From: Mayamaea pseudoterrestris
Lineage: Eukaryota
Reading direction: 5' to 3'
DNA length: 64,000 nucleotides
Assembly: GCA_027923505.1 (NCBI GenBank)
Contig: BROI01000016.1
Coordinates: 620,001 to 684,000 of the forward strand
This document shows positions 31,875 to 64,000 of the stretch, piece after piece. Positions within the stretch are counted from its first letter, which is position 1. The number at the start of each line of letters is the position of its first letter. Below the pieces are notes generated by a model. It worked only from the letters and a program-made list of their open reading frames with translations, was not told the origin of the DNA and made no database searches. The position numbers and the translations under genes were made by a program.

Positions 31875-32262
31875 TTAGCTTGATCTGGGCATACGCATGG
31901 CTTGAGGTATGGGCCCTTGAAAATTCCGGCATCTGCTGGCCGAGACTGGTGACAAGTTGTCACCAATCAAATTGCATTCTATGAGAGACCAGCCAGGCAA
32001 ATAATCTTGTAGCGCACCTGAAATAAGGATGTTAGCACCATTCTGTCTTGATCTGGGCATACTCATGGCTCTAGGAATGGGCATTTAAAATTTACTGCAT
32101 CTGCTGGCTGAAAATGGTGACAAGTTGTCACTAATCACATTGCAGTCCACTGAGGGACCAGCCAGGCAATGCATCTTGTAGCGCACCTAAAATGAGGATG
32201 TCACACCATTCTGGTGTATTTTGGGCACCTACAGGGCTCAAGGTATGGGCATATGAAAAGCA
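31875..32262 (-). repeat. About 2.3 diverged, inverted monomers of the 169-bp satellite A
   Basis: Contains CTGGTGACAAGTTGTCACCA, ATCTTGTAGCGCA and CACCATTCTG at ~168-169 bp spacing, the reverse complement of the 54.2-59.0 kb array. Confidence 0.9.
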
Positions 32263-35704: not shown

Positions 35705-36244
35705 ATAGAAAAGGAAGTTAACGCTCTTGCCAAAGAACTATATCTATCGTATGTCGTGCCGCTGCACTAGCTCGATGAGCAAGCAACGTCGTCGCTATAG
35801 TGAGACATGATTGGGTACCGGTACGACGCAAAACACCCTCATTGATTCGCCGTTCGCTTTTACGAGCTAAAAACGCCAAGCGAAGACCCATCCATCACGC
35901 TTTTACGATGCTTTCACGTCTACCGTGACAAACTTGACATACATTGCAGCATCAACAAGAGAGAAAATGACGATGATTCGTTTATCTGTCTTGACTGTCT
36001 TGACTGCGAGTCTCTCGCTGTGTCATGCACTCTCCATGCAGTCGACTGCCGCAGCAAGCAGCAAGGCATCATTCAATCAACGCGCCCTGGCGAATGCTCC
36101 TCCCTTTCCTCGTACATGGGTTCCTCTTGGTTCCACATACGAAATGGACGGCTCGCGTCCAAACAAGGTTCAGTTCCTTGGACAGTCGTACGTTTGCTAT
36201 CAAAATGATTTGAATGACGCCAATTCATGGACAGTCGTCGACGA

Positions 36245-36455
36245 TGTTGGATCTAGAATATATCTTGCGCGCCCTTGAAGCGACACTAATGATTAAGCAG
36301 AACAGAGTCAATAAAACCACTTTACTTATTTTCTCCAAGAAGTGATCGTCCTCGATCCACTCCTTCGGTTGCCGCTTACCGCGCTTACTTAAATGTGACC
36401 GTCTTCGTGACGTCACCGCTGCCGCTTCGGTTTGGGTTCTCATCCATGCTCAACA
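36245..36455 (-). repeat. 3' LTR (211 bp)
   Basis: Base-for-base identical to 41260-41470. Confidence 0.98.
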
Positions 36456-39042
36456 CACTCCTTTGGGCCGAGTAGTACTTACTGCTCGAGGCCAGATTCA
36501 TAACCAGGTTGCGGAGCTTGCCAAACTGGGCTCCCTGCAATGGTTTCGTGAAGAAATCCGCGACCATGTCTCCGGTCGGACAATGCTCAATGTTGACTTC
36601 ACCAGCTGCCACGCGATCTTTCACAAAGAAGTACCGAACATTCATGTGTCGCGTGCGCTTTGTACTTGAGCTTCTGCCATTCTTTTCCAACAGCATTGAA
36701 CTCATATTGTCTTGATACAATTTCGTGTCTTTGACCCCGAAACCTTGCGCCTTCAGAAAATATCCTGTCCACAGCAACTGCGGTAGCACATCATGAACTC
36801 CCACAACTTCGCTCTCCGTCGAGCTTCTTGTTACCAACTTCTGTTTAGCCGACGTACTGTACACTGATCCTTGGCCAAGTGTCATTGTTCCACCAGTGTG
36901 ACCCTTCATGTCTGGGTGCACCGCGTACGACGCATCCACCCACCACTGGACTATCCCGGACTGGTCCGCCTTCAGCGTCAACACCATGTCCACGCTTCCG
37001 CGTAAATATTTAATCACTCTTGCAGCCTTCTTATAGTCGTCTTCGTCAGGCTGCTGCAGCCTCGTGCTCAAGAAAGAAATCGCTGTGCGAATATCCGGTC
37101 GCGCTCGCTGACTCAGATACAGACACTGCATCACAATCGTCACAAAAATCTGCTTCTTCGCTTCGCTCAACATGACAGGATTTTCCGATATCTGAAACAA
37201 GTGACTGGCTGCCGGAGTAGCTGCCGTTCCATCCATGTCGTCTGGCGCATGATGCAGGATGTTCTTCACATAGTCAACCATGTTGATTGCTACTTCTCCA
37301 GGCTTAGTATAGTCCAATACCATGCCGAGGTAGTCGTGCACTTTTCCGCGTGACTTATTCATTGGAGTCTCCTTGCCAAACTCCTCATCCATCTGCGCGA
37401 TGAACTCATCCACTACGCTCACGTCGACGTGCGAAATCTTCAAATCGTCCACGTGCCATCCCACGGTGATTTGCTTCCCATTGACAATCTTGTTGCACAC
37501 ACACGGATCGTACGGGTTCTTCTCGAAGCCCCACTCAAGCAATTTTGCGGACAACTTCTCCCAGAATAGTCGCGCTGCTCGAAGCGTACCATAAAGCGCC
37601 ATGAGTAATTCAACATACATGACTTTCTCGCCATTCTCCATTGTGACGCAAGGCTCGTACATCTCGCGATCAATTTCCAACAGTAGCTCCACCATCTTCC
37701 CAGTGAAACGAACGTGCACCAACTCATCCATTTCCGCTTGCATGAAAGCACCCGGTACATCAACCACAGCAACCTCGCGCCCTTCCATAGCGTCAATGAT
37801 AGCTGTCAGAAAGATGGCCTCTGTCGCTATCGTTGGAGATGCTGCGTCTTCCTTTGCAGTGTATGCTCGTTGCTTGCGTCCATCCGCGCATCCGCGTCCC
37901 TTCACAGTCCCGCATCTCTTGCGCTTGAGAAACATCAAATACGCCAGAGCGTCCTTGCGCTGCTGCGGAGTCAGAGTGCATTGGTGGACTGCCTTCATGA
38001 CGTGCCTGTCGTGTAGCTGCTGCATTTCCTTGCGCACTGCCTCCACTCCAGCATCGCCAAAAGCCTTTAAACCTTGTCGCATATTCATCTGTGCCGTGAC
38101 GAGTGGCTCCGACACTTCCTCTGCAGCGTCGAGCGTGAACAAATGAGCGAACGAGCGAGGTTTGCGCGCACGCAGGCCATACCGACCAGTGCGTGGGCCA
38201 TAGCGCGCATCGAAATCCTCTTCGTCTGCAGCAGCTGGCACTCCTTCAATTTCGCCTTCATCGGGCACTCCTTCAATTTCGCCATCATCCACGGCTGGCG
38301 CGTCGTCAAGTTCGCCGTCAATGGCCTCACCATCCTCGTCGTTCGGCACTCCTTCGATTGCGCCGTCAGCACCATCGTCGTCGTCGTCGTCGTCATCGGT
38401 CGCATTCACTCCTTCGCTTCCGCCGGCAGAGTCGTCGTCACCGCGAGAAGCGTCGTCATCATAATCAGAGTCATCATCATCCTCGGCGTCATCTTCGTGC
38501 CACATGACTGGCTCAGCAGCCTCCGCAACACGGTGGCGGTCCATGAACACGATGCCCGGATTGGCCTTCTGTTGACGAGCGAGACGATGCACGCGCTCAA
38601 TGACATCATCAGGCATGGGCAAAGGCGTAGCGTGCCCACGATTCAGAACTTTGCCCGAAGACAAACTGAGGAAATAAAACCCACCCTGCACATTACCAGT
38701 CGGGCGCAGAGCCAGCGCACCGATCGTGCGCGCCTGCATGTCATTGCTGTGCGACTCATGCGTTTGCACATACTGACCAAATTCATACTTGCAATGCCGA
38801 TTAAAGTCAACTGTCTGACCAGTCACAATAGTGCGTGGACTGAGATCCTTCGAAATGCCACGCTCGTTCGGAAACGCATTCAACCAAAACACGGCAGACT
38901 TCGTCATTTCGATAACCAAGCGTGCCGGCACGTGCTTAAATGGCAACGTGTTGTATGTCGCGCGCACCCGTTCTTTCACGACACGGATAAAACGTTCAAT
39001 TTCGCCAACGTGTTCATCCTCAGATGTCGCATTGAGCGCCAC
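36385..39042 (-). CDS. pol: Pol C-terminal part: integrase C-half, acidic linker, reverse transcriptase, RNase H
   Basis: EHVGEIER (IN Glu); DVPGAF, LYGT..AARLFW, WHVDD (RT); WVDASYA, SSTESE, YQDNMS, MVADFFTKPLQG (RH). The stop codon lies inside the 3' LTR. Confidence 0.95.
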   Translation of the reverse strand: MALNATSEDEHVGEIERFIRVVKERVRATYNTLPFKHVPARLVIEMTKSAVFWLNAFPNERGISKDLSPRTIVTGQTVDFNRHCKYEFGQYVQTHESHSNDMQARTIGALALRPTGNVQGGFYFLSLSSGKVLNRGHATPLPMPDDVIERVHRLARQQKANPGIVFMDRHRVAEAAEPVMWHEDDAEDDDDSDYDDDASRGDDDSAGGSEGVNATDDDDDDDDGADGAIEGVPNDEDGEAIDGELDDAPAVDDGEIEGVPDEGEIEGVPAAADEEDFDARYGPRTGRYGLRARKPRSFAHLFTLDAAEEVSEPLVTAQMNMRQGLKAFGDAGVEAVRKEMQQLHDRHVMKAVHQCTLTPQQRKDALAYLMFLKRKRCGTVKGRGCADGRKQRAYTAKEDAASPTIATEAIFLTAIIDAMEGREVAVVDVPGAFMQAEMDELVHVRFTGKMVELLLEIDREMYEPCVTMENGEKVMYVELLMALYGTLRAARLFWEKLSAKLLEWGFEKNPYDPCVCNKIVNGKQITVGWHVDDLKISHVDVSVVDEFIAQMDEEFGKETPMNKSRGKVHDYLGMVLDYTKPGEVAINMVDYVKNILHHAPDDMDGTAATPAASHLFQISENPVMLSEAKKQIFVTIVMQCLYLSQRARPDIRTAISFLSTRLQQPDEDDYKKAARVIKYLRGSVDMVLTLKADQSGIVQWWVDASYAVHPDMKGHTGGTMTLGQGSVYSTSAKQKLVTRSSTESEVVGVHDVLPQLLWTGYFLKAQGFGVKDTKLYQDNMSSMLLEKNGRSSSTKRTRHMNVRYFFVKDRVAAGEVNIEHCPTGDMVADFFTKPLQGAQFGKLRNLVMNLASSSKYYSAQRSVLSMDENPNRSGSGDVTKTVTFK

Positions 39043-39689
39043 CCGAGATCAGCCAACGCGCCAAGCATTGGAGCGAACTCCCCATCCATCAGAGCCGCGA
39101 CGACACGGAACCCACCGCGTGCGTAAATCTTCAACACAGACTCGATTGCCTTCAACATAACCGGAAGCGTACGGTTTTGAATCACCTCAACCGTAGCAAA
39201 ACGAATGCTGCGGGAGAACGTCACCAACATAGGGACTTTGTTGATATACATGATGTCAGCACAAAGAGTAACGTCTCGATAGCGACTCATGATAGCCGGT
39301 GGAAGCTGCTCAACAATCGCAGGCTTCACCAGATGCGACGCGCGACGCGTCGTCTTTCCTTTTAACGAGCCAACATCTGGTCCAAAGATGTGCTCAGCAG
39401 CCAGGATGTCGGCCTTCGTCACAGGACAGTTCGGCAACTGATTGCTAGTAACGATGCGCAGGTAATCCTTGAGGCTTGGCCGTCCAATTTTGATTTGCAG
39501 TTCCCTAGCTCTAACAGCGCGTAAATAGTCATCATTGGTGTAGTTAGTACGGTTATCGTCTACCGTAGTCAACATCGCCACTCCATCTCTTGACATCGCT
39601 GCGCTTGCCCTTCGAAAAGCTCTCGCAAACATACAGCCCAGAGTCAGTCTCGACAAACTCTCGCTGCTTACCATCCGGCTTCTCCACAA
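38976..39689 (-). CDS. Pol middle part: pre-integrase region and integrase N-half (frameshifted relative to both neighbours)
   Basis: TTVDDN...ARELQIKIGRPS, NCPVT..DI.AA.HIFGPDVGSLKGKT, CADIMYIN (Asp), LMDGEF (Asp). Confidence 0.88.
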   Translation of the reverse strand: MWRSRMVSSESLSRLTLGCMFARAFRRASAAMSRDGVAMLTTVDDNRTNYTNDDYLRAVRARELQIKIGRPSLKDYLRIVTSNQLPNCPVTKADILAAEHIFGPDVGSLKGKTTRRASHLVKPAIVEQLPPAIMSRYRDVTLCADIMYINKVPMLVTFSRSIRFATVEVIQNRTLPVMLKAIESVLKIYARGGFRVVAALMDGEFAPMLGALADLGWRSMRHLRMNTLAKLNVLSVS

Positions 39690-41232
39690 CGAACATTGGA
39701 CGATCCACGCCGTGCATGAGATACTCCACGGTAAACTTCTTGCGGACTTGCGCCAAACTCAAAATGTTCGCCAGTCCCTGCGGATACCACCACACCGGAC
39801 CATAGCCCTCCAGGTCGCCCATCATGTTCGTCCTTACTGTACCAGCGTTGCACTTGATCACCATCCACGTTGGCACCGGGCGAATGTTCGTCAGCATCTT
39901 GGCGTTGCAGAACAGATCCACTGTCGACTGATTGTCCAAGAGCACAGCCTTCTTCGAGATGTTCACCTTCGGCGGCTGCGCGAACATGTATCCGACCTCA
40001 TCGTCGTCATCGCTTTCTTCCTCGCTACCCAGCGTGAAGTGCTGCGCCCCACTAGCCTCTGCAGCCGGCGCACTCTCCGTAGACTCCGTTCTCGTAGGAC
40101 AGTCTCGCTGCACATGACCAACCTGTTGACAGGTCCAGCATCTGGGAGGGTCACGCGCTGTACCAGTCGTGTGAAACGCCACGCCCTCGTTCGTTGGCAA
40201 CGTGGCTTCTCCATCCGCATGCTCACGACGCTGCATGATGTTGTATGCATCGTGGATCGTCAACGGGAAGTTGTCGTGCCCGTCGAGGTAGCAGTTGCGC
40301 AAGTGCTTGCAATACCCAGCGTATTCGCCCGTTGCGCCACGCACGAAAAGCATCGCAAGCTCGAGCTCTTCGGCGGCCTTGATATCCTCCTTGTTCGCCT
40401 TGTTACGATTGTCATCCTTGGCAATGTTCAACGCCACAATCTCGTTGTGCATCGTGACGCCAACCGCCTTCGCCACGTCTGCCAGCGTGACCATGCTTTC
40501 GTAATATTTCTGCAGGCTTTCGCGCGCTCCTTGAGTACGTCCGAACAACTCAGCTTGAATGTCCACGACTTGATCCACAAGTTTGCAGCGCCCTTCGTAC
40601 GTATGCGAGATCTCCTTGATAATCGCCAGCAACTTAATTCCGTCCGTGTCCTCCTCGGCGTCTCGGAACTTGGCGTGCGACTTGACACGATCCTTCATAC
40701 GCTCCGTGCATTGTCCATGCAACACGGCGTAGAGACCAGCGAGGAAGTCGGAGTATACACGCACGCGCTCGACATGCTCTTTCTTGTCGGCCTTGTATTC
40801 CTCGAGCATTATGGACCAGTCCGAGTCCGTCGTGTCGGCATCCTTCGTTGGACGTGCAGGCTCGTCAGGAATCTCCAGTTCCACGTTGCGCATGCCCTTG
40901 AGCAGCTCCTTGGTATATTTCTTGTAGGAGCGCCCGACGAAAGTGATGATCTCGTTCGTCGTACGGATGAATCCATCGGGATCGCGCGAACCGTTATAGT
41001 CGTAGATGAATCCAGCGAGCGTCGGCTCGCTTCCTTGGAAATTTCCACTCGGCGCACGACTCGGTCCGTTGAGTCTGTTACCATTGCCTTGATTCCCGGA
41101 ACGATTCCCAGCACGATTCCCACGACGATAATGACGGTTGCGTCGGTTTCCTTCGCTTGCTGGCGGAGCGGGAGGTGCACCTCCACCGCTCGACGCCGCT
41201 CCTGTCGTCGGAGTATTGCTCGTCGAAGACAT
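39553..41232 (-). CDS. gag: Gag (CCHC zinc knuckle) plus aspartic protease
   Basis: CWTCQQVGHVQRDC knuckle; VLLDNQSTVDLF protease site; ANILSLAQV. ATG lies 27 nt after the 5' LTR. Confidence 0.92.
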   Translation of the reverse strand: MSSTSNTPTTGAASSGGGAPPAPPASEGNRRNRHYRRGNRAGNRSGNQGNGNRLNGPSRAPSGNFQGSEPTLAGFIYDYNGSRDPDGFIRTTNEIITFVGRSYKKYTKELLKGMRNVELEIPDEPARPTKDADTTDSDWSIMLEEYKADKKEHVERVRVYSDFLAGLYAVLHGQCTERMKDRVKSHAKFRDAEEDTDGIKLLAIIKEISHTYEGRCKLVDQVVDIQAELFGRTQGARESLQKYYESMVTLADVAKAVGVTMHNEIVALNIAKDDNRNKANKEDIKAAEELELAMLFVRGATGEYAGYCKHLRNCYLDGHDNFPLTIHDAYNIMQRREHADGEATLPTNEGVAFHTTGTARDPPRCWTCQQVGHVQRDCPTRTESTESAPAAEASGAQHFTLGSEEESDDDDEVGYMFAQPPKVNISKKAVLLDNQSTVDLFCNAKMLTNIRPVPTWMVIKCNAGTVRTNMMGDLEGYGPVWWYPQGLANILSLAQVRKKFTVEYLMHGVDRPMFVVEKPDGKQREFVETDSGLYVCESFSKGKRSDVKRWSGDVDYGRR

Positions 41233-41245
41233 GTCTTTTCACTCG

Positions 41246-41259
41246 CTTCTTGGAGAAAA
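41246..41259 (-). promoter_or_regulatory. Primer-binding site position of the LTR element (TTTTCTCCAAGAAG), complementary to LTR-internal sequence
   Basis: Directly abuts the 5' LTR; lacks the TGG start of a tRNA-CCA PBS; 41246-41260 is the exact reverse complement of 41343-41357. Confidence 0.8.
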
Positions 41260-41470
41260 TGTTGGATCTAGAATATATCTTGCGCGCCCTTGAAGCGACA
41301 CTAATGATTAAGCAGAACAGAGTCAATAAAACCACTTTACTTATTTTCTCCAAGAAGTGATCGTCCTCGATCCACTCCTTCGGTTGCCGCTTACCGCGCT
41401 TACTTAAATGTGACCGTCTTCGTGACGTCACCGCTGCCGCTTCGGTTTGGGTTCTCATCCATGCTCAACA
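41260..41470 (-). repeat. 5' LTR (211 bp)
   Basis: Identical to 36245-36455; contains palindrome GTGACGTCAC (41422-41431) and an Inr-like TCACTT (41360-41355). Confidence 0.98.
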
Positions 41471-43187
41471 GACGATGCTTGTCCCCATCGCTTAGCTCCT
41501 CTTTCGGAAGGCCGCGTCATTAATACAGACGCTGCGACTGGAAACGAAATCCAGCTCAAGGACTTGCCAAAGCATTCTGCTACTGGAGAAACCAAGCGAC
41601 TCTTGGAGTGCGCCTACCACGGCTGGGCCTTTGACAGGGACGGTCGCTGCAATCGCATTCCGCAAGCGACGTTGGAGCTGCAGCAGCGCACCATTCAATC
41701 CAATCCAAACTGTCACGTGCAAGGATATTCAACGCGAGTCTCGAAGAATATACTGTTCGCGTGGCTGTGGCCTGAGGACTGTCTGCAGTTTACGCAGGAC
41801 GAGTGGCGGCAGCCGGACTACATGACGGAAAACATGTTGGAGGATGGATACACGTACACGCGCGACGCGCAGTATGGCTGGGATACGCTGCTGGAGAATA
41901 TCATTGACTTGTCGCACTTGCCGTGGGTATGTATGTGAGCAAACGAGTGTCGAAATGATTACGTTGAAGTCTCTCATTCATTCGTCTCACGCGCGACGTT
42001 TCTTGCATGCATTTATTATTCTCGACAGGCCCACCACGGCCAGCAGGGAACGCGAGACGACACTGTCGTCATGAACATTACGGCGATTGGCAAGCCATCG
42101 GAGCAAGGCATGAAGTTTTCCTTTGACGACAAGACCATGGCGCTCGATCGGACTGGCTTGCTTGACTTTCGGGCGCCCTTTTTCATGCTCTTGTATTCGC
42201 AGCTTCAACCAAAGAGCAAAGACGACATGCCAAAGTACTTTGACATGAATCTTGTCATGATTCCAACCAAGCCGGGCTGGAATCGTCTCATTGTTTGCAC
42301 TGGAAGTGGTAAACGCTCCGGGGAAGAGATGGCAGCAGGAAGCGCAAATGACTCGACGCAAGCTGCAACAAAAAAGTTACCAAAAGCAAGCGTGTTTGGT
42401 AGAGTCTACCGTCGACTTCCCGTTTGGATAAAACATCAGTTTACGCACAAAATTATTGACGCTGATATTATCTTGCTGCACAAGCAGGAGGAGGAGCGAA
42501 CGACCAACCGTGGGGTTGACTATGAAGGTTACTGCATGCCGGCCACGTCGGATCGAGTCATTACTCCCATTCGACGATGGGTGTCAAAATATGCTCACAT
42601 TCCGTCACTGTCAATAAATGGCGACGGTAGTGGCGGACGAGTGGTGCTGCCGGAACCGCCGGTGCAGCGAAGCGTCTTGTTTGATCGTTGGTCGCAGCAT
42701 TCGGATCAGTGCAAACACTGCCACAAGGCGCTTGACGGTGTCAAGACTTGGCGCCGCAACAATTTTATGATCATGGCAGTCAGCATTATAGCGGCCAAGT
42801 TCTTGGCAGCTCGCGTCGCCCTTGTTGGATGCTTGGCCATGTGGCGACTCTTGCATGTTGCGGAGGAGTCGCTTACCAAGGGCCAGTGTGACCACTACAA
42901 GAATCATTGACAGCATCAACGATTTTTTTGAACATTTTTGGGCATGTCAATGATGGACGTCTTTTGGGCTTGTACACGATGTTGCAACACTGCGTCAAGT
43001 GAACAAATGTAGCTGCATCTACATTAATGAAACGTTTGCATATCAAATATACAGTATATTTGGAGTATGTGAATCTTTTGAGGCACACCGCTCTACCGGT
43101 AGCTACCGTCGAGCCGAAATCGACAGAGGAAGCGCAGTCGAATGTCTGTCACGATGCGCCAACCCACCCTGAGTCGCAAACGAAGAT

Positions 43188-53635: not shown

Positions 53636-54240
53636 ATTGCCACCTTAAGACTACGGTAGGTATAAGTGAGGTATATAAGACATTCAATTTTCTTAAACTT
53701 ATGTTCTCCCAACAAAACAGGAGTAGGTATGCTGTATGCCATGCAACTGTATGTCATGCAGCAGCAGCAGCGGTACCACACAAAGAACTCTGGACATCCC
53801 CATCAGCATTGCCACGTTCAACCAAGGTATTGGTTAGGTCCATCAATCTCTACACCTGGCAGTTGTGCGTACATCTCAAGTTTTGAGGATAGAACTGATA
53901 GCTTCCACATAGCCAAGTATCATGCCGCCACACCGCGCCACATCACACCAATAGTTACTCTGGACATCCCCATCAATTGCAAAAAATTGCCACCATGGGC
54001 CAAGATATAATGAGGCCAACTAGCCAAAACTTACCTGGCAAAGCTCAAGTATTTGCAAAGTTGTGGGAGTAGATGTGCCAAATAGAAAAGAAGCTCTGTT
54101 TACAATCCACACCAATCAAACTATGGCCCTGATGGTCGTTTTAGCCATTGCCACCTTTAGACTAGTTATAAATGAAATACTATGAGACATACAATTTAGA
54201 TCAACTCATGTTTTCCCAATGAAACAGGAGTAGATATATA
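53636..54240. repeat. Degenerate repeat zone with ~170-bp periodicity bordering satellite A
   Basis: ATTGCCAC at 53636, 53808, 53986, 54147; ACTCTGGACATCCCCATCA twice 170 bp apart; a ~95-bp block ending ACAGGAGTAG repeated at ~511 bp. Confidence 0.65.
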
Positions 54241-57200
54241 TTCTCACCAGTCTCAGCCCGCATATGCCTTGACATTCTAGTGCCCATACACCAAGCCATG
54301 TATACACCCAAATTACACCAGAATGGTGCCAACATCATTATTCAGGCTGCGCTACAAGATGGTAGGCTTGGCTGGTGTCTCAGGGGATGGCAATGTATTT
54401 GGTGACAACTTGTCACCAGTCTCAGCCCGCAGATGCCGTGACATTCAAACGCCCCTACAGCAAGTCCTGTAGGTGCCCAAATTACACCAGAATGGTGCCA
54501 ACATCATTTTTTAGGCTGCGCTACAAGATGGTAGGATTGGCTGGTGTCTCAGGGGATGGCAATGTATTTGGTGACAACTTGTCACCAGTCTCAGCCCGCT
54601 GATGCCGTGACATTCAAACGCCCCTACAGCAAGCCCTGTTGTTGCCAAAAGTACATCAGAATGGTGCCAACATCATTATTCAGGTGGCGCTACAAGATGG
54701 TAGGCTTGGCTGGTGTCTCAGGGGATGGCAATGTATTTGGTGACAACTTGCCACCAGTCTCAGCTGCCCGCAGATGCCGTGTCATTTAAATGCCCCTACA
54801 GCAAGCCCTGTAGGTGCCCAAAATACACCAGAATGGTGCCAACATCATTATTCAGGCTGCGCTAAAAGATGGTAGGCTTGGCTGGTGTCTCAGGGGATGG
54901 AAATGTATTTGGTGACAACTTGTCACCAGTCTCAGCCCGCAGATGCCTTAACATTCTTGTGCCCATACAGCAAGCCCTGTAGGTGCCCAAAATACACCAG
55001 AATGGTGCCAACATCATCATTCAGGTTGCGCGACAAGATGATTTGCTTGGCTGGTGTCTCAGGGGATGGCAATGTATTTGGTGACAACTTGCCACCAGTC
55101 TCAGCTGCCCGCAGATGCCTTGACATTCAAACGCCTTTTCATCAGGCCCTGTAGGTGCCCAACTAACACCAGAATAGTGCCAACATCATTGTTTAGGCTG
55201 CGCTACAGGATGGTATGCTTGGCTGGTGTCTCCGGGGATGGCAATGTATTTGGTGACAACTTGTCACCAGTCTCAGCTGCCCGCAGATGCCGTGTCATTT
55301 AAATGCCCCTACAGCAAGCCCTGTAGGTGCCCAAAATACACCAGAATGGTGCCAACATCAATTTTCAGGCTGAGCTACAAGATGATTTGCTTGGCTGGTG
55401 TCTCAGGGGATGGCAATGTATTTGGTGACAACTTGTCACCAGTCTCAGCCCGCAAATACCGTGACATTTACACGCCCCTACAGCGAGCCCTATAGGTGTT
55501 CAAATTACATCAGAAGGGTGCCAACATCATTATTCGGGTGGCGATACAAGATGATATGCCTGGTTGGAGTCTCAGGGGTTGGCAATGTATTTGGTGACAA
55601 TTTGTCACCAGTCAGCCCGCATATGCATGACATTCAAACACACCTACAGCAAGCCCTGTAGGTGCCCAAAATACACCAGAATGGTGCCAACATCATTATT
55701 CAGGATGCGCTACAAGATGGTAGGCTTGGCTGGTGTCTCAGGGGATGGCAATGTATTTGGTGACAACTTGTCACCAGTCTCAGCCCGCTGATGCCGTGAC
55801 ATTCAAACGCCCCTACAGCAGGCCCCGTAGGTGCCCAAATTACACCAGAATGGTGCCAACATCATTGTTTAGGATGCCCTACAAGATGGTAGGCTTGGCT
55901 GGTGTTTCCGGGGATGGCAATGTATTTGGCGACAACTTGTCACCAGTCTCAGCCCGCTGATGCCGTGACATTCAAACGCCCCTACACCAGGCCCTGTAGG
56001 TGCCCAAATTACACCAGAATGGTGACAACATCATTATTTAGGCTGCGCTACAAGATGGTAGGCTTGGCTGGTGTCTCCGGGGATGGCAATGTATTTGGTG
56101 ACAACTTGTCACCAGTCTGAGCCCGCTGATGCCGTGACATTCAAACGCCCCTACACCAGGCCCTGTAGGTGCCCAAATTACACCAGAATGGCGCCAGCAT
56201 CATCATACAGGCTGCGCTACAAGATGGTAGGCTTGGCTGGTGTCTCAGTGACATTCAAACACACCTACAGCAAGCCCTGTAGGTGCCCAAAATACACCAG
56301 AATGGTGCCAACATCATTATTCAGGATGCGCTACAAGATGGTAGGCTTGGCTGGTGTCTCAGGGGATGGCAATGTATTTGGTGACAACTTGTCACCAGTC
56401 TCAGCCCGCTGATGCCGTGACATTCAAACGCCCCTACAGCAGGCCCCGTAGGTGCCCAAATTACACCAGAATGGTGCCAACATCATTGTTTAGGATGCCC
56501 TACAAGATGGTAGGCTTGGCTGGTGTTTCCGGGGATGGCAATGTATTTGGCGACAACTTGTCACCAGTCTCAGCCCGCTGATGCCGTGACATTCAAACGC
56601 CCCTACACCAGGCCCTGTAGGTGCCCAAATTACACCAGAATGGTGACAACATCATTATTTAGGCTGCGCTACAAGATGGTAGGCTTGGCTGGTGTCTCCG
56701 GGGATGGCAATGTATTTGGTGACAACTTGTCACCAGTCTGAGCCCGCTGATGCCGTGACATTCAAACGCCCCTACACCAGGCCCTGTAGGTGCCCAAATT
56801 ACACCAGAATGGCGCCAGCATCATCATACAGGCTGCGCTACAAGATGGTAGGCTTGGCTGGTGTCTCAGGGGATGGCAATGTATTTGGTGACAACTTGTC
56901 ACCAGTCGCAGCCCGCTCATGCCGTGACATTCAAACGCCCCTACAGCAGGCCCTGTAGGTGCCCAAATTACACCAGAATGGTGCCAACATCATTATTCAG
57001 GATGCGCTACAAGATGATAGGCTTGGCTGGTGTCTCAGGGAATGGCAATGTATTTGGTGACAACTTGTCACCAGTCTCAGCCCGCTGATGCCGTGACATT
57101 CAAACGTCCCTACACCAGGCCCTGTAGGTGCCCAAAATACACCAGAATGGTGCCAACATCATTATGCAGAATGCGCTACAAGATGGTAGGTTTGGCCGGT

Positions 57201-59070
57201 GTCTCTGGGGATGGCAATGTATTTGGTGACAACTTGTCACCAGTCTCAGCCCGCTGATGCCGTGACATTCAAACGCCCCTACATCAGGCCCTGTAGGTGC
57301 CCAAATAACACCAGAATGGTGCCAACATCATTTTTAAGGCTGCGCTACAAGATGGTAGGCTTGGCTGGTGTCTCAGGGGATGGCAATGTATTTGGTGACA
57401 ACTTGTCACCAGTCTCAGCCCACTGATGCCGTGACATTCAAACGTCCCTACATCAGGCCCTGTAGGTGCCCAAATTACACCAGAATGGTGCCAACATCAT
57501 CATATAGGCTGCGCTACAAGATGGTTGGCTTTTGGCTGGTGTCTCAGGGGATGGCAATGTATTTGGTGACAACTTGTCACCAGTCTCATCCCACAGATTC
57601 CCTGACATTCAAACGCCCCTACAGCAGGCCCTGTAGGGTGCCCAAATTACACCAGAATGGTGCCAACATCATTGTTTAGGATGCGCTACATTAGTTGTGT
57701 CTCAGGAATGGGCAACTTGTAGCCCCTCAGGCCCTGTAGGTGCCCAAATTACACCAGAATGGTGCCAACATCATTATTCAGGATGCGCTACAAGATGATA
57801 GGCTTGGCTGGTGTCTCAGGGAATGGCAATGTATTTGGTGACAACTTGTCACCAGTCTCAGCCCGCTGATGCCGTGACATTCAAACGTCCCTACACCAGG
57901 CCCTGTAGGTGCCCAAAATACACCAGAATGGTGCCAACATCATTATGCAGAATGCGCTACAAGATGGTAGGTTTGGCCGGTGTCTCTGGGGATGGCAATG
58001 TATTTGGTGACAACTTGTCACCAGTCTCAGCCCGCTGATGCCGTGACATTCAAACGCCCCTACATCAGGCCCTGTAGGTGCCCAAATAACACCAGAATGG
58101 TGCCAACATCATTTTTAAGGCTGCGCTACAAGATGGTAGGCTTGGCTGGTGTCTCAGGGGATGGCAATGTATTTGGTGACAACTTGTCACCAGTCTCAGC
58201 CCACTGATGCCGTGACATTCAAACGTCCCTACATCAGGCCCTGTAGGTGCCCAAATTACACCAGAATGGTGCCAACATCATCATATAGGCTGCGCTACAA
58301 GATGGTTGGCTTTTGGCTGGTGTCTCAGGGGATGGCAATGTATTTGGTGACAACTTGTCACCAGTCTCATCCCACAGATTCCCTGACATTCAAACGCCCC
58401 TACAGCAGGCCCTGTAGGGTGCCCAAATTACACCAGAATGGTGCCAACATCATTGTTTAGGATGCGCTACAAGATGATAGGCTTGGCTGGTGTCTCAGGG
58501 AATGGCAATGTATTTGGTGACAACTTGTCACCAGTCTCAGCCCGCTGATGCCGTGACATTCAAACGCCCCTACAGCAGGCCCTGTAGGTGCCCAAATTAC
58601 ACCAGAATGGTGCCAACATCATTATTCAGGATGCGCTACAAGATGATAGGCTTGGCTGGTGTCTCAGGGAATGGCAATGTATTTGGTGACAACTTGTCAC
58701 CAGTCTCAGCCCGCTGATGCCGTGACATTCAAACGCCCCTACATCAGGCCCTGTAGGTGCCCAAATTACACCAGAATGGTGCCAACATCATTATTCAGGC
58801 TGCGCTACAAGATGGTAGGCTTGGCTGGTGTCTCAGGGGATGGCAATGTATTTGGTGACAACTTGTCACCAGTGACTTCCATGCCGTGACATTCAAACGC
58901 CCCTACAGCAGGCCCTGTAGGTGCCCAAATTACACCAGAATGGTGCCAACATCATCATATAGGCTGCGCTACAAGATGATTGGCTTTTGGCTGGTGTCTC
59001 ATGATGGCAATGTTTTGGTGAATTGATCTGCTGACATTCAAACCTCCCTACCCAGCAGGCCCTGAGGGCC
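54241..59070. repeat. Satellite A: tandem array of ~28 monomers of 169 bp with higher-order duplications
   Basis: Period 169 (e.g. 54375 to 54544, 55733 to 55902); every intact monomer carries TGGTGACAACTTGTCACCA or a near variant. Confidence 0.98.
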
Positions 59071-62000
59071 ATACACCATTGAATGGATTGCACATCCTGC
59101 ATCTTTGGCATGCCTAGCAACCGCAGAGACTCAATTGACAACAGGCTCGGCCCACTGGCGGCTATTGAGTGTGTTTGTATTTGAGTAGCTGAAACCATTG
59201 CTGAACCCAACCCCCGGTCATTTTCCTGGTGGGGTTGTAGGTATACCATTGAATGGATTGCACATCCTACATCCATAATGCATGCCTAGCAACCGCAGAG
59301 ACTCGTATTGAAGCGGGCTGGCCCGTGGATGTGGATATTGAGTTTGTTTGTATTTGAGTAGCTGAAACCATTGTTGAACCCAACCCCAGTTATTTTACTG
59401 GAGGGTTTGTAGGTATAAATTTGAACAATTGCACATCCTACATCCTTTATGCATGCCTAGCAACCGCAGAGACTCACATTGAAGCTGGATGGCCCATGGC
59501 TATGGCTATTGAGTGTGTTTGTATTTGAATAGCTGAAACCATTGCTGAACCCAACCCCAGTCATTTTACTGGAGACTTTGAAGGTATACCATTGAATGGA
59601 TTGCACATCCAGCATCTTCAATCCATGCCTAGCAACCGCAGAGACTCCTATTGAAACAGGCTGGCTCATGGCTATGGCTATTGAGTGTGTTTGTATCTGA
59701 ATAGCTGAAACCATTGCTGAACCCAACCCCGGTCATTTTACTGGAGACTTTGAAGGTATACCATTGAATGGATTGCACATTCTGCATCTTCAATTCATGC
59801 CTAGCAACCGCAGAGACTCATATTGAAACAGGCTGGCACATGGCTATGGCTATTGAGTGTGTTTATATTTGAGTAGCTGGACCCATGCCGAACCCAACCC
59901 CGGTCATTTTCCTGGAGGAGTTGTAGGTATAAATTTGAATGGATTGCACATCCTGCATCTTAAATCCATGCCTAGCAACCGCAGAGACTCACTTTGAAGC
60001 AGGCTGGCTCATGGCTATGGCTATTGAGTGGTTTGTATTTGAATAGCTGAAACCATTGCTGAACCCAACCCCGGTCATTTTACTGGAGGGTTTGAAGGTA
60101 TACCATTGAATGGATTGCATATCCTGCATCATTAATCCATGCCTAGCAACCGCAGAGACTCATATTGAAGCAGGCTGGCTCATGGCTATGGCTATTGAGT
60201 GTGTTTGTATTTGAGTAGCTGGACCCAAGCCGAACCCAACCCCGGTCATTTTCCTGGAGGAGTTGTAGGTATAAATTTGAATGGATTGCACATCCTGCAT
60301 TCTTTTTTGCATGCCTAGCAACCGCAGAGACTCAGATTGAAGCTGGCTGGCACATGGCTATGGCTATTGAGTGTGTTTATATTTGAGTAGCTGGACCCAT
60401 GCTGAACCCAACCCCGGTCATTTTCCTGGAGGGTTTGAAGGTATACCATGGAAATGGATTGCACATCCTGCACCCTATATGCATGTCTAGCAACCGCAGA
60501 GACTCATATTGAAGCAGGCTGGCTCATGGCTATGGCTATTGAGTGTGTTTGTATTTGAGTAGCTGAAACCATTGCTGAACCCAACCTCGGTCATTTTCCT
60601 GGAGGAGTTGTAGGTATACCATTGAATGGATTGCACATCCTGCATCCTTTATGCATGCCTAGCAACCGCAGAGACTCAGATTGAGGCTGGCTGGCTCATG
60701 GCTATGGCTATTGAGTGTGTTTGTATTTGAATAGCTGTAACCATTGCTGAACCCAACCCCGGTCATTTTCCTGGTGGGTTTGAAGGTATATTATTTATTG
60801 GATTGCAGATCCTGCATCCTTTATGCATGCCTAGCAACCGCAGAGACTCAAATTGAACTTGGCTGGCTCATGGCTATGGCTATTGAGTGTGTTTGTATTT
60901 GAGTAGCTGGACCCATGCTGAACCCAACCCCGGTCATTTTCCTGGAGAGTTTGAAGGTATATTATTGAATGGATTGCACATCCTGCATCCTTTATGCATG
61001 CCTAGCAACCGCAGAGACTCATATTGAAGCAGGCTGGCTCATGGCTATGGCTATTGAGTGTGTTTGTATTTGAATAGCTGAAACCATTGCTGAACCCAAC
61101 CCCGGTCATTTTACTGGAGGGGTTGAAGGTATAACATTGAATGGATTGCACATCCTGCATCCTTTATGCATGCCTAGCAACCGCAGAGACTCATATTGAA
61201 GCAGGCTGGCACATGGCTATGGCTATTGAGTGTGTTTTTATTTGAGTAGCTGAAACCCATGCCGAACCTAACCCCTGTCATTTTCCGGGAGGAGTTGTGG
61301 GTATCAATTTGAATAGATTGCACATCCTGCTTCTTTAATATATGCCTAGCAACCGCAGAGACTCATATTGAAGCAGGCTGGCTCATGGCTATGAATATTG
61401 AGTGTGTTTGTATCTGAGTAGCTTAAACCATTGCTGAACCCAACCCTGGTCATTTTACTGGAGGGTTTGAGAGTATACCAAACAATGGATTGCACATCCT
61501 GCATCGTTTTTGCATGCCTAGCATCCGCAGAGACTCATATTGAAGCAGGCTGGCTCATGGCTATGGCTTTTGAGTGTGTTTGTATTGGAGTAGCTGGACC
61601 CATGCCGAACCCAACCCCGGTCATTTTACTGGAGGGTGTGAAGGTATACCATTGAATGGATTGCACATCCTGCATCCTTTATGCATGCCTAGCAACCGCA
61701 GAGACTCATATTGAAGCAGGCTGGCTCATGGCTATGGCTATTGAGTGTGTTTGTATTTGAGTAGCTGAAACCATTGCTGAACCCAACCCCGGTCATTTTA
61801 CTGGAGGGTTTGAAGGTATACCATTGAATGGATTGCACATCCTGCATCCTTTATGCATGCCTAGCAACCGCAGAGACTCATATTGAAGCAGGCTGGCTCA
61901 TGGCTATGGCTATTGAGTGTGTTTTTATTTGGACAGCTGGACCCATTGCTGAACCCAACCCCGGTCATTTTACTGGAGGGTTTGAAGGTATACCATTGAA

Positions 62001-64000
62001 TGGACTGCACATCCTGCATCCTTTATGCATGCCTAGCTACCGCAGAGACTCATATTGAAGCCAGCTGACGCATGGCTATGGCTATTGAGTGTGTTTGTAT
62101 TTGAACAGCTGGACCCATTGCTGAACCCAACCCCGGTCATTTTACTGGAGAGTTTGAAGGTATACCATTGAATGGATTGCACATCCTGCATCCTTTATGC
62201 ATGCCTAGCAACCGCAGAGACTCATATTGAAGCAGGCTGGCACATGGCTATGGCTATTGAGTGTGTTTGTATTTGAGTAGCTGGACCCATGCCAAACCCA
62301 ACCCCGGTCATTTTCCTGGAGGAGTTGTAGGTATACCATTGAATGGATTGCACATCCTGCATCCTTTATGCATGCCTAGCAACCGCAGAGACTCATATTG
62401 AAGCTGGCTGGCTCATGGCTATGGCTATTGAGTGTGTTTGTATTTGAGTAGCTGAAACCATTGCTGAACCCAACCCCGGTCATTTTCCTGGAGGGTTTGA
62501 AGGTATACCATTGAATGGATTGCACATCCTGCATCCTTTATGCATGCCTAGCAACCGCAGAGACTCATATTGAAGCAGGCTGGCTCATGGCTATGGCTAT
62601 TGAGTGTGTTTGTATTTGAATAGCTGAAACCATTGCTGAACCCAACCCCGGTCATTTTCCTGGAGGGTTTGAAGGTATACCATTGAATGGATTGCACATC
62701 CTGCATCTTTTATGCATGCCTAGCAACCGCAGAGACTCATATTGAAGCAGGCTGGCTCATGGCTATGGCTATTGAGTGTGTTTGTATTTGAGTAGCTGAA
62801 ACCATTGCTGAACCCAACCCCGGTCATTTTACTGGAGGGTTTGAAGGTATACCATTGAATGGATTGCACATCCTGCATCCTTTATGCATGCCTAGCAACC
62901 GCAGAGACTCATATTGAAGCAGGCTGGCTCATGGCTATGGCTATTGAGTGTGTTTGTATTTGAGTAGCTGAAACCATTGCTGAACCCAACCCCGGTCATT
63001 TTACTGGAGGGTTTGAAGGTATACCATTGAATGGATTGCACATCCTGCATCCTTTATGCATGCCTAGCAACCGCAGAGACTCATATTGAAGCAGGCTGGC
63101 TCATGGCTATGGCTATTGAGTGTGTTTGTATTTGAATAACTGAAACCATTGCTGAACCCAACCCCGGTCATTTTACTGGAGGGTTTGAAGGTATACCATT
63201 GAATGAATTGCACATCCTGCTTTCTTCCTAGCAACCGCAGAGACTCATATTGAAGCTGGCTGCCTCATGGCTATGGCTATTGAGTGTGTTTGTAATCGAA
63301 TAACTGAAACCATTGCAGAACCCAACCCCGGTCATTTTACTGAAGGGTGTGAAGGTATAAAATTGAATGGATTGCACATCCTGCATCCTTTATGCATGCC
63401 TAGCAACCGCAGAGACTCATATTGAAGCAGGCTGGCTCATGGCTATGGCTATTGAGTGTGTTTGTATTTGAATAGCTGAAACCATTGCTGAACCCAACCC
63501 CGGTCATTTTACTGGAGGGTTTGAAGGTATACCATTGAATGGATTGCACATCCTGCATCCTTTATGCATGCCTAGCAACCGCAGAGACTCATATTGAAGC
63601 AGGCTGGCTCATGGCTATGGCTATTGAGTGTGTTTGTATTTGAGTAGCTGAAACCATTGCTGAACCCAACCCCGGTCATTTTACTGGAGGGTTTGTAGGT
63701 ATAAATTTGAATGGATTGCACATCCTACATCCTTTATGCATGCCTAGCAACCGCAGAGACTCATATTGAAGCAGGCTGGCTCATGGCTATGGCTATTGAG
63801 TGTGTTTGTATTTGAATAGCTGAAACCATTGCTGAACCCAACCCCGGTCATTTTACTGGAGGGTTTGAAGGTATACCATTGAATGGATTGCACATCCTGC
63901 ATCCTTTATGCATGCCTAGCAACCGCAGAGACTCATATTGAAGCAGGCTGGCTCATGGCTATGGCTATTGAGTGTGTTTGTATTTGAGTAGCTGAAACCA
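59071..64000. repeat. Satellite B: tandem array of ~28 or more monomers of 172 bp, continuing past the window end
   Basis: Period 172 (TTGCTGAACCC at 62461, 62633, 62805). Confidence 0.98.

Follow-up and report, generated by a model that had tools for sequence, protein, structure and literature searches.

Covariation between the LTR and the primer binding site points to self-priming in a Ty1/copia retrotransposon of a diatom

To our knowledge, self-primed reverse transcription has been established experimentally only for Tf1, and outside the Tf1/sushi gypsy group we know of self-priming from a few sequence predictions. Lin and Levin are said to have found in 1998 that Tf1 additionally requires a U5 stem-loop. 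In Tf1, the leading 11 bases of the element's own RNA pair with its primer binding site (PBS), and cleavage by RNase H falls between bases 11 and 12, as described in PMC7175516. This account agrees with a preliminary description of the DNA analyzed here, which had stated that Tf1 primes with the first bases of its own mRNA; the same description had taken copia elements to be typically primed by tRNA, and PMC6317226 likewise names tRNA-Met or a half tRNA as the primer of most Ty1/copia elements. Self-priming has also been predicted for relatives of Tf1 in the Tf1/sushi group, among them Tj1 of S. japonicus, for which the same complementarity criterion was used (PMC4600332).

Within Ty1/copia, self-priming has been predicted from sequence alone for the plant TAR lineage (Houba, Osr-1) in PMC6317226, which cites Capy 2005 on this point, so that self-priming in a copia element has a precedent. 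In classical copia, Osser and Bianca, the PBS matches a host tRNA or half tRNA and is conserved within the lineage (PMC6317226). The fungal GalEa copia elements are described as having no tRNA-type PBS and as carrying a Conserved Hairpin Site at the PBS position (PMC5445492), and the authors state that an LTR sequence complementary to it was never found. A search of the full-text literature, whose scope largely excluded subscription journals, yielded no account of self-priming in elements of diatoms or other stramenopiles. PBS, tRNA and priming go unmentioned in the main text of the CoDi paper (PMC2806351), and the 'self-priming' of bioRxiv 2022.10.17.512609 was set aside, the term being used there in an unrelated sense (siRNA production). 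Here, we compare these systems with a Ty1/copia element found in a 64-kb stretch of DNA (hereafter, the window), whose PBS is a perfect complement of a segment of its own LTR.

Structure and identity of the element

The window contains a complete Ty1/copia LTR retrotransposon of 5226 bp on the minus strand (36245..41470), for which the LTR pair, ends, length and identity were checked; all element features given below lie on that strand. The 5' LTR (41260..41470), read directly from the sequence, spans 211 bp from TGTTG to CCAACA and is 100% identical to the 211-bp 3' LTR (36245..36455). The element is flanked by a target-site duplication, TCGTC, with its upstream copy at 41471..41475 and its downstream copy at 36240..36244. 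Adjoining the 3' LTR is a purine-rich tract, AAAGGAGTG (36456..36464), which probably functions as the polypurine tract; a comparable GGAGTG precedes TGTTG in a related locus, L001.

The first reading frame (39553..41232) opens with an ATG at 41232, 13 nt past the PBS, and encodes gag and the start of pol, including a CCHC zinc knuckle (40096-40143; zf-CCHC, E 1.1e-5, ORF1 residues 364-379). It is followed by 183 codons in a second frame (39042..39590), located by tblastn of the proteins P0001 and P0193 and lying between two 1-nt frame changes, and by the remainder of pol (36385..39048). The latter contains a reverse transcriptase (~37246-37926) identified by a match to Pfam RVT_2 (E 8.2e-17, 62 bits versus a cutoff of 31.6), followed by a presumed RNase H. 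RVT_2 was also matched in the proteins of 18/18 relatives. The reverse transcriptase is thus copia-type RVT_2 and not gypsy-type, which places the element outside the Tf1/sushi clade. Together with the zinc knuckle, the TG..CA LTRs and the 5-bp target-site duplication, the RVT_2 match bears out the earlier assignment of the element to Ty1/copia.

The pol protein was aligned with 17 homologues (alignment A1). No match to the integrase model (Pfam rve) was obtained at E<=1 in any of 18 proteins, no Pfam protease model was matched in the element or in 18 relatives, and a PDB sequence search with a profile of the polyprotein returned no match. In P0193, the reverse transcriptase occupies roughly residues 1100-1330, with ~290 aa beyond it and ~700 aa separating it from the knuckle, and the alignment consensus between these two domains contains D..D..E-like motifs, which is an argument from layout. 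The copia domain order of the element is therefore a prediction from layout.

Two proteins annotated in the diatom Mayamaea pseudoterrestris, P0001 and P0193, are the nearest to the element, with 99-100% identity, in keeping with the earlier view of it as a diatom element. P0193 (1615 aa) can be aligned over the whole span between the ATG and the pol stop, in three blocks at 99.5-100% identity, its residues 1-548 matching the first-frame gag/pol of the window copy at 100%, so the intact sibling is a single long gag-pol ORF. Relative to P0193, the window copy carries two 1-nt frame changes, at ~39590 and ~39042, despite its identical LTRs. One base is absent at 39588 in 4/4 sequencing runs, and there is no homopolymer at ~39590 or ~39042; the frame changes are either a true defect of this copy or an assembly indel. 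The element is a young, recently inserted copia retrotransposon. In sequencing runs X2-X4, the summed word depth between 39500 and 41700 ranges from hundreds to tens of thousands over the element and from 0 to 70 over the 5' flank, a measure that gauges neither copy number nor expression.

The stop codon of pol (36387..36385) falls within the 3' LTR, at a depth of 69-71 nt. With the boundary set by an initiator-like motif (see below), the predicted U3 comprises 112 nt (41470..41359 in the 5' LTR) and the predicted R plus U5 comprises 99 nt (41358..41260). Since the pol ORF continues for 71 nt within the 3' LTR, 71 of the only 112 nt of the predicted U3 are coding. Such a U3 would be a very compact promoter.

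Elsewhere in the window, a tandem satellite of ~10 kb (54100-64000), with copies 60-100% alike, reaches the window end; its arrays have a period of ~169 bp (roughly 54123-59020) and then of ~172 bp (roughly 59080-63950). The unit is nucleosome-sized, and the satellite could be a centromeric or subtelomeric repeat. A 101-nt direct repeat is also present at 31879-32147 in two copies, 84% alike and 168 nt apart.

The primer binding site and its complement in the LTR

Directly after the LTR lies a 14-nt PBS, TTTTCTCCAAGAAG (41246..41259), which is the perfect complement of 41357..41344. The LTR interior reads TCA (41360-41358) and then CTTCTTGGAGAAAAT (41357-41343). The TCA (41358..41360) belongs to the initiator-like motif, A41358 being the predicted transcription start, and the adjoining 14 nt, CTTCTTGGAGAAAA (41344..41357), would be nt 2-15 of the RNA and constitute the putative self-primer. 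T41343, the next base after the 14-nt arm, pairs with the last LTR base, A41260, which extends the perfect core to 15 nt (41246-41260 versus 41343-41357), with 82 nt separating the arms. When the TCA is included, the arms of the inverted repeat (41243-41260 and 41343-41360) are complementary at 17/18 positions. The same primer sequence is present in the 3' LTR (36329..36342), where it would fall in the 3' R of the transcript.

Our reading of the minus strand reproduces the two observations with which the preliminary description began, namely that the 5' LTR ends in CCAACA and is followed by the PBS without a TGG, and that a perfect 15-nt complement starts right after a TCA within the LTR. Its estimate of a ~110-nt loop needs a slight amendment: the whole fold, from the A of TCA to the PBS end, measures 113 nt, whereas the unpaired loop itself measures 82-84 nt.

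The complementarity was compared with expectation in the whole window. Allowing up to 2 mismatches, the 15-mer occurs 3 times (both LTR copies and, on the opposite strand, the PBS) versus 0.15 expected, and none of 100 shuffles reached 3 occurrences. Seven perfect inverted repeats of at least 11 nt with loops of 30-250 nt are found in the 64 kb, among which the LTR/PBS pair alone exceeds 12 nt. The 15-nt LTR/PBS complement is far beyond chance. No tRNA gene is present in the window.

Register, covariation and folding among related loci

The related elements comprise 79 loci on metagenome contigs (342,183 nt in total), picked solely by similarity of their pol protein; the best segment of each is 37-69% identical to the pol of the window. 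No relatives were found in a viral contig collection. Across the full 342,183 nt, an unbiased scan returned 32 perfect inverted repeats that were at least 12 nt long and had loops of 40-200 nt. In 28 of these, from 27 loci, the layout of the window element recurs, as judged from the flanking bases: the 3' arm lies right after ...AACA and the 5' arm right after YCA. The complement in these 28 sites is perfect over 14-16 nt, and its partner lies 45-118 nt upstream, mostly 82-118. The other 4 of the 32 repeats are located elsewhere than in the LTR/PBS layout. Away from the LTR, in the pol region, two loci (L037:4754-4891 and L039:4335-4472) share the same perfect 13-nt inverted repeat with a 112-nt loop.

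A second set of 33 regions upstream of gag was chosen regardless of repeats. In 19 of them, a perfect 14-16-nt repeat is present with its 3' arm at most 70 nt from the ATG, and for each, 0/30 shuffles contained a repeat as long; in 6 further loci the repeat is more distant from the listed ATG, one of them (L051) carrying it ahead of a second gag start. The complement is present in imperfect form in two others, with two G.U pairs in L043 and with one indel in L008. In L068, a 16-bp pairing is displaced by 2 nt and encloses a loop of just ~31 nt. Two loci with a readable LTR/gag junction, L001 and L028, have no LTR complement of the sequence following the LTR. L001 has a clear TGTTG...CAACA LTR, with a strong local G/C hairpin inside it, followed by unrelated sequence, and L028 has a local palindrome, CTCACA...TGTGAG, just ahead of gag; these loci may be exceptions, use other priming modes or represent chimeric contigs. 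Four of the 33 (L024, L025, L054 and L021a) could not be assessed, the upstream sequence being too short or 5'-truncated.

To describe the pairing column by column, we used an alignment of 28 LTR/PBS regions (A2). Possession of the repeat was the criterion for entering A2, whose percentages thus apply to positive loci and not to all relatives, for which the unselected figures are those of the gag-upstream survey of 33 regions and of the 342,183-nt scan. The register of the pairing is fixed. With the sites anchored on the LTR end (...AACA), PBS positions 1-14 past it are paired in 28-29 of 29 sites, the lone failures at positions 1 and 2 being due to a single locus (L009) mis-anchored on AACAACA. 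Pairing is seen at position 0, the last A of the LTR, in 13/29 sites, at position 15 in 4/29 and at position -1 in 1/29. It was not taken to extend past the 14 nt, either towards the TCA or towards U5, since pairing is at chance level at positions -1 to -4 and at positions 15 to 21.

The sequence held in this register turns over freely. The 28 rows contain 27 distinct PBS sequences, which differ at a median of 8/14 positions; the window element and a near relative, L036, have PBSs that differ by one compensated pair. TGG is found at the PBS start in 0/28 sites. RNAalifold, run on A2, predicts exactly this 14-bp LTR/PBS helix, in which 14/14 pairs show double changes. The helix is paired in 99.7% of cells, versus 55.4% in shuffles, and has a covariation score of 1.02, versus 0.23 in shuffles (0/500 as high), and when the register is slid by 1-3 columns, only 36-52% of cells are paired. 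A single G.U occurs in 381 cells, so that the helix is almost purely Watson-Crick. The preliminary description had proposed covariation between LTR and PBS across related families as a test of self-priming, and the outcome is positive: every pair of the helix is compensated. Because the 28 rows hold 27 distinct PBSs, none of which starts with TGG, a tRNA primer is untenable.

The folds of individual sequences lead to the same helix. In 28/28 minimum-energy folds of the segment from the A of TCA to the PBS end, the structure closes on the LTR/PBS helix. The window sequence folds at -31.2 kcal/mol (z = -3.0), and 0/200 shuffles fold as well. Within the loop, in the U5 region, a bulged hairpin (41282..41301; RNA nt 58-77) is conserved with covariation. 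In A2 (columns 104-111/117-123), it is paired in 72.6% of cells versus 59.4% in shuffles (0/500), with a covariation score of 0.365 versus 0.193 (0/500), and it tolerates G.U pairs, which make up 14 of 175 cells. Many relatives also have a 5-bp hairpin, CTGGTTT...AAACC (GGUUU...AAACC in RNA), right after the 5' arm (A2 columns ~31-75), which is weak in the window and is a possible marker of the RNase H cut site or of the R region.

The bases preceding the 5' arm are also conserved among the 28 sites, with G at -5 in 17, C at -4 in 17, T at -3 in 23, C at -2 in 26, A at -1 in 27 and a pyrimidine at +1 in 27. The motif, GCTCA followed by Y, is placed exactly ahead of the complement in 26-27/28 sites. 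The remaining U3 is unalignable among relatives, the motif alone being conserved, and no conserved TATA box was found upstream of it in the 28 sites. In oomycetes, which are fellow stramenopiles, the initiator follows the pattern YCAYTYY with initiation at the A, as described in PMC3599244, and the motif fits this pattern; the passage of the same paper on the diatom T. pseudonana describes it as lacking the combined INR+FPR motif. The motif thus suggests that transcription of the window element would start at A41358, which agrees with the +1 near 41358 predicted in the preliminary description. Among the 79 related loci, neither poly(A) ends nor poly(T) starts occur, and none of their contigs starts at the 5' arm, so the contig ends yield no start or poly(A) site.

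Proposed mechanism, alternatives and relation to known systems

We propose that the element probably primes its own reverse transcription in a Tf1-like manner, with predicted start, cut and priming steps. Transcription would begin with the A (41358) that closes the conserved GCTCA motif, and nt 2-15 of the RNA would fold back over a structured loop of 82-84 nt and pair with the 14-nt PBS (41259-41246). The element's RNase H would then cut the RNA just past the paired stretch, after nt 15, leaving an RNA of ~15 nt whose 3' OH lies opposite the last U5 base and from which minus-strand strong-stop DNA of 83-84 nt would be primed. This DNA would be transferred to the 3' R, where the transcript carries the primer sequence a second time (36329-36342), so that the full LTR would be rebuilt after the first strand transfer. 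Self-priming, first put forward for this element in the preliminary description, gains strong support from the covariation in relatives and from the absence of a tRNA-type PBS.

The near-pure Watson-Crick duplex, set against the G.U-tolerant inner hairpin, suggests that every cycle may renew the PBS by copying the primer; such re-copying, if true, would explain the duplex. In retroviruses, the tRNA primer is likewise copied. The two G.U pairs of L043 bear on this point: both LTR arms of that locus agree and the PBS deviates at two positions, an observation that either has no bearing on strict renewal of the PBS or speaks mildly against it.

The complementarity could also reflect a conserved long-range RNA structure that serves, for example, in packaging, in dimerisation or in controlling how gag, 13 nt downstream, is translated, the primer being a different one. 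The helix and the two inner hairpins form a conserved multi-branch fold, and the gag ATG lies 13-70 nt past the 3' arm in most relatives, both of which would suit such a role; the support for priming is, moreover, a comparison of sequences and not an observed priming event. However, the 3' arm sits exactly where a PBS is canonically found, its first base being the one that follows the LTR in 28-29/29 sites, and no other conserved or tRNA-like sequence is found between the LTR and gag, where the flanks are unrelated among elements and TGG is absent from all 28 PBS starts. The sharp 14-nt limits and the near-zero G.U content are also more in keeping with a primer/template duplex than with a helix of structural role alone, given that the inner hairpin tolerates G.U. 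We therefore regard a solely structural helix as unlikely.

A second possibility is priming in trans, in which the 5' end of a second genomic RNA, or a short promoter-proximal LTR transcript, anneals to the PBS. Complementarity by itself cannot separate cis from trans, and retroelement RNAs are packaged as dimers. Annealing in trans would, however, need neither a loop confined to 45-118 nt (mostly 82-118) nor the conserved, covarying hairpin within it, which is what would be expected of one folded unit, and we consider this route quite unlikely. Priming by a host tRNA or tRNA half, as in most Ty1/copia elements (tRNA-Met or half tRNA; PMC6317226), with a coincidental LTR complement, retains scarcely any probability and appears effectively refuted by the covariation, given the negligible chance probability of the complement, PBSs that differ at a median of 8/14 positions among relatives and yet always match their own LTR, and the lack of TGG at the PBS start (0/28).

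With self-priming in cis as the preferred reading for the window element, we lean slightly towards a broader one, in which the whole Ty1/copia clade represented by the diatom and the aquatic metagenomes would have abandoned tRNA primers in favor of a 14-nt primer from the capped 5' end of its RNA, set by the initiator and held in a three-way junction, with the PBS re-copied from it and with an origin independent of Tf1/sushi and possibly of TAR. If such an independent origin is true, self-priming would be recurrent or ancestral in LTR retroelements. Diatom copia elements activated by stress are already under study, and the present lineage adds a copia group with unusually clean comparative support, comprising 27 differing primer/PBS pairs in one fixed register. 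Annotation of LTR elements that seeks a tRNA-complementary PBS would miss the PBS of such elements. The finding touches the question of whether LTR elements inherited self-priming from an ancestor or acquired it repeatedly, an idea raised speculatively in PMC3601003, and elements free of tRNA priming would escape host small RNAs derived from tRNA 3' ends (cf. PMC7472051).

Tf1, Tf2 (S. pombe) and Tj1 are among the known systems closest in design. As in these elements, the PBS that follows the LTR pairs with the beginning of the element's own RNA, here a predicted beginning, which makes a tRNA dispensable; the loop of the diatom element contains a conserved hairpin, and Tf1 is said to require a U5 stem-loop. 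Unlike Tf1, which belongs to Ty3/gypsy (Tf1/sushi group), the diatom element has a copia-type RVT_2 reverse transcriptase, its duplex is 14 bp and not 11, and its pairing probably begins at RNA base 2, that of Tf1 beginning at base 1. In line with this, A41358, if it is the first RNA base, is unpaired in 25/29 sites, which we count against the likeness to Tf1. The mechanism is experimentally proven in Tf1 and is predicted in the diatom element.

With the TAR lineage, the element shares both membership in Ty1/copia and a sequence-based prediction of self-priming, although TAR is found in green plants and the present element in a diatom. With classical copia, Osser and Bianca, it shares the superfamily and the overall layout, but its PBS matches only its own LTR. 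GalEa is similar in being a Ty1/copia element without a tRNA-type PBS and with a structure at the PBS position; in GalEa, however, this structure is a local palindrome and hairpin of conserved sequence, whereas in the diatom element the partner of the PBS lies inside the LTR and the sequence of the pair varies freely.
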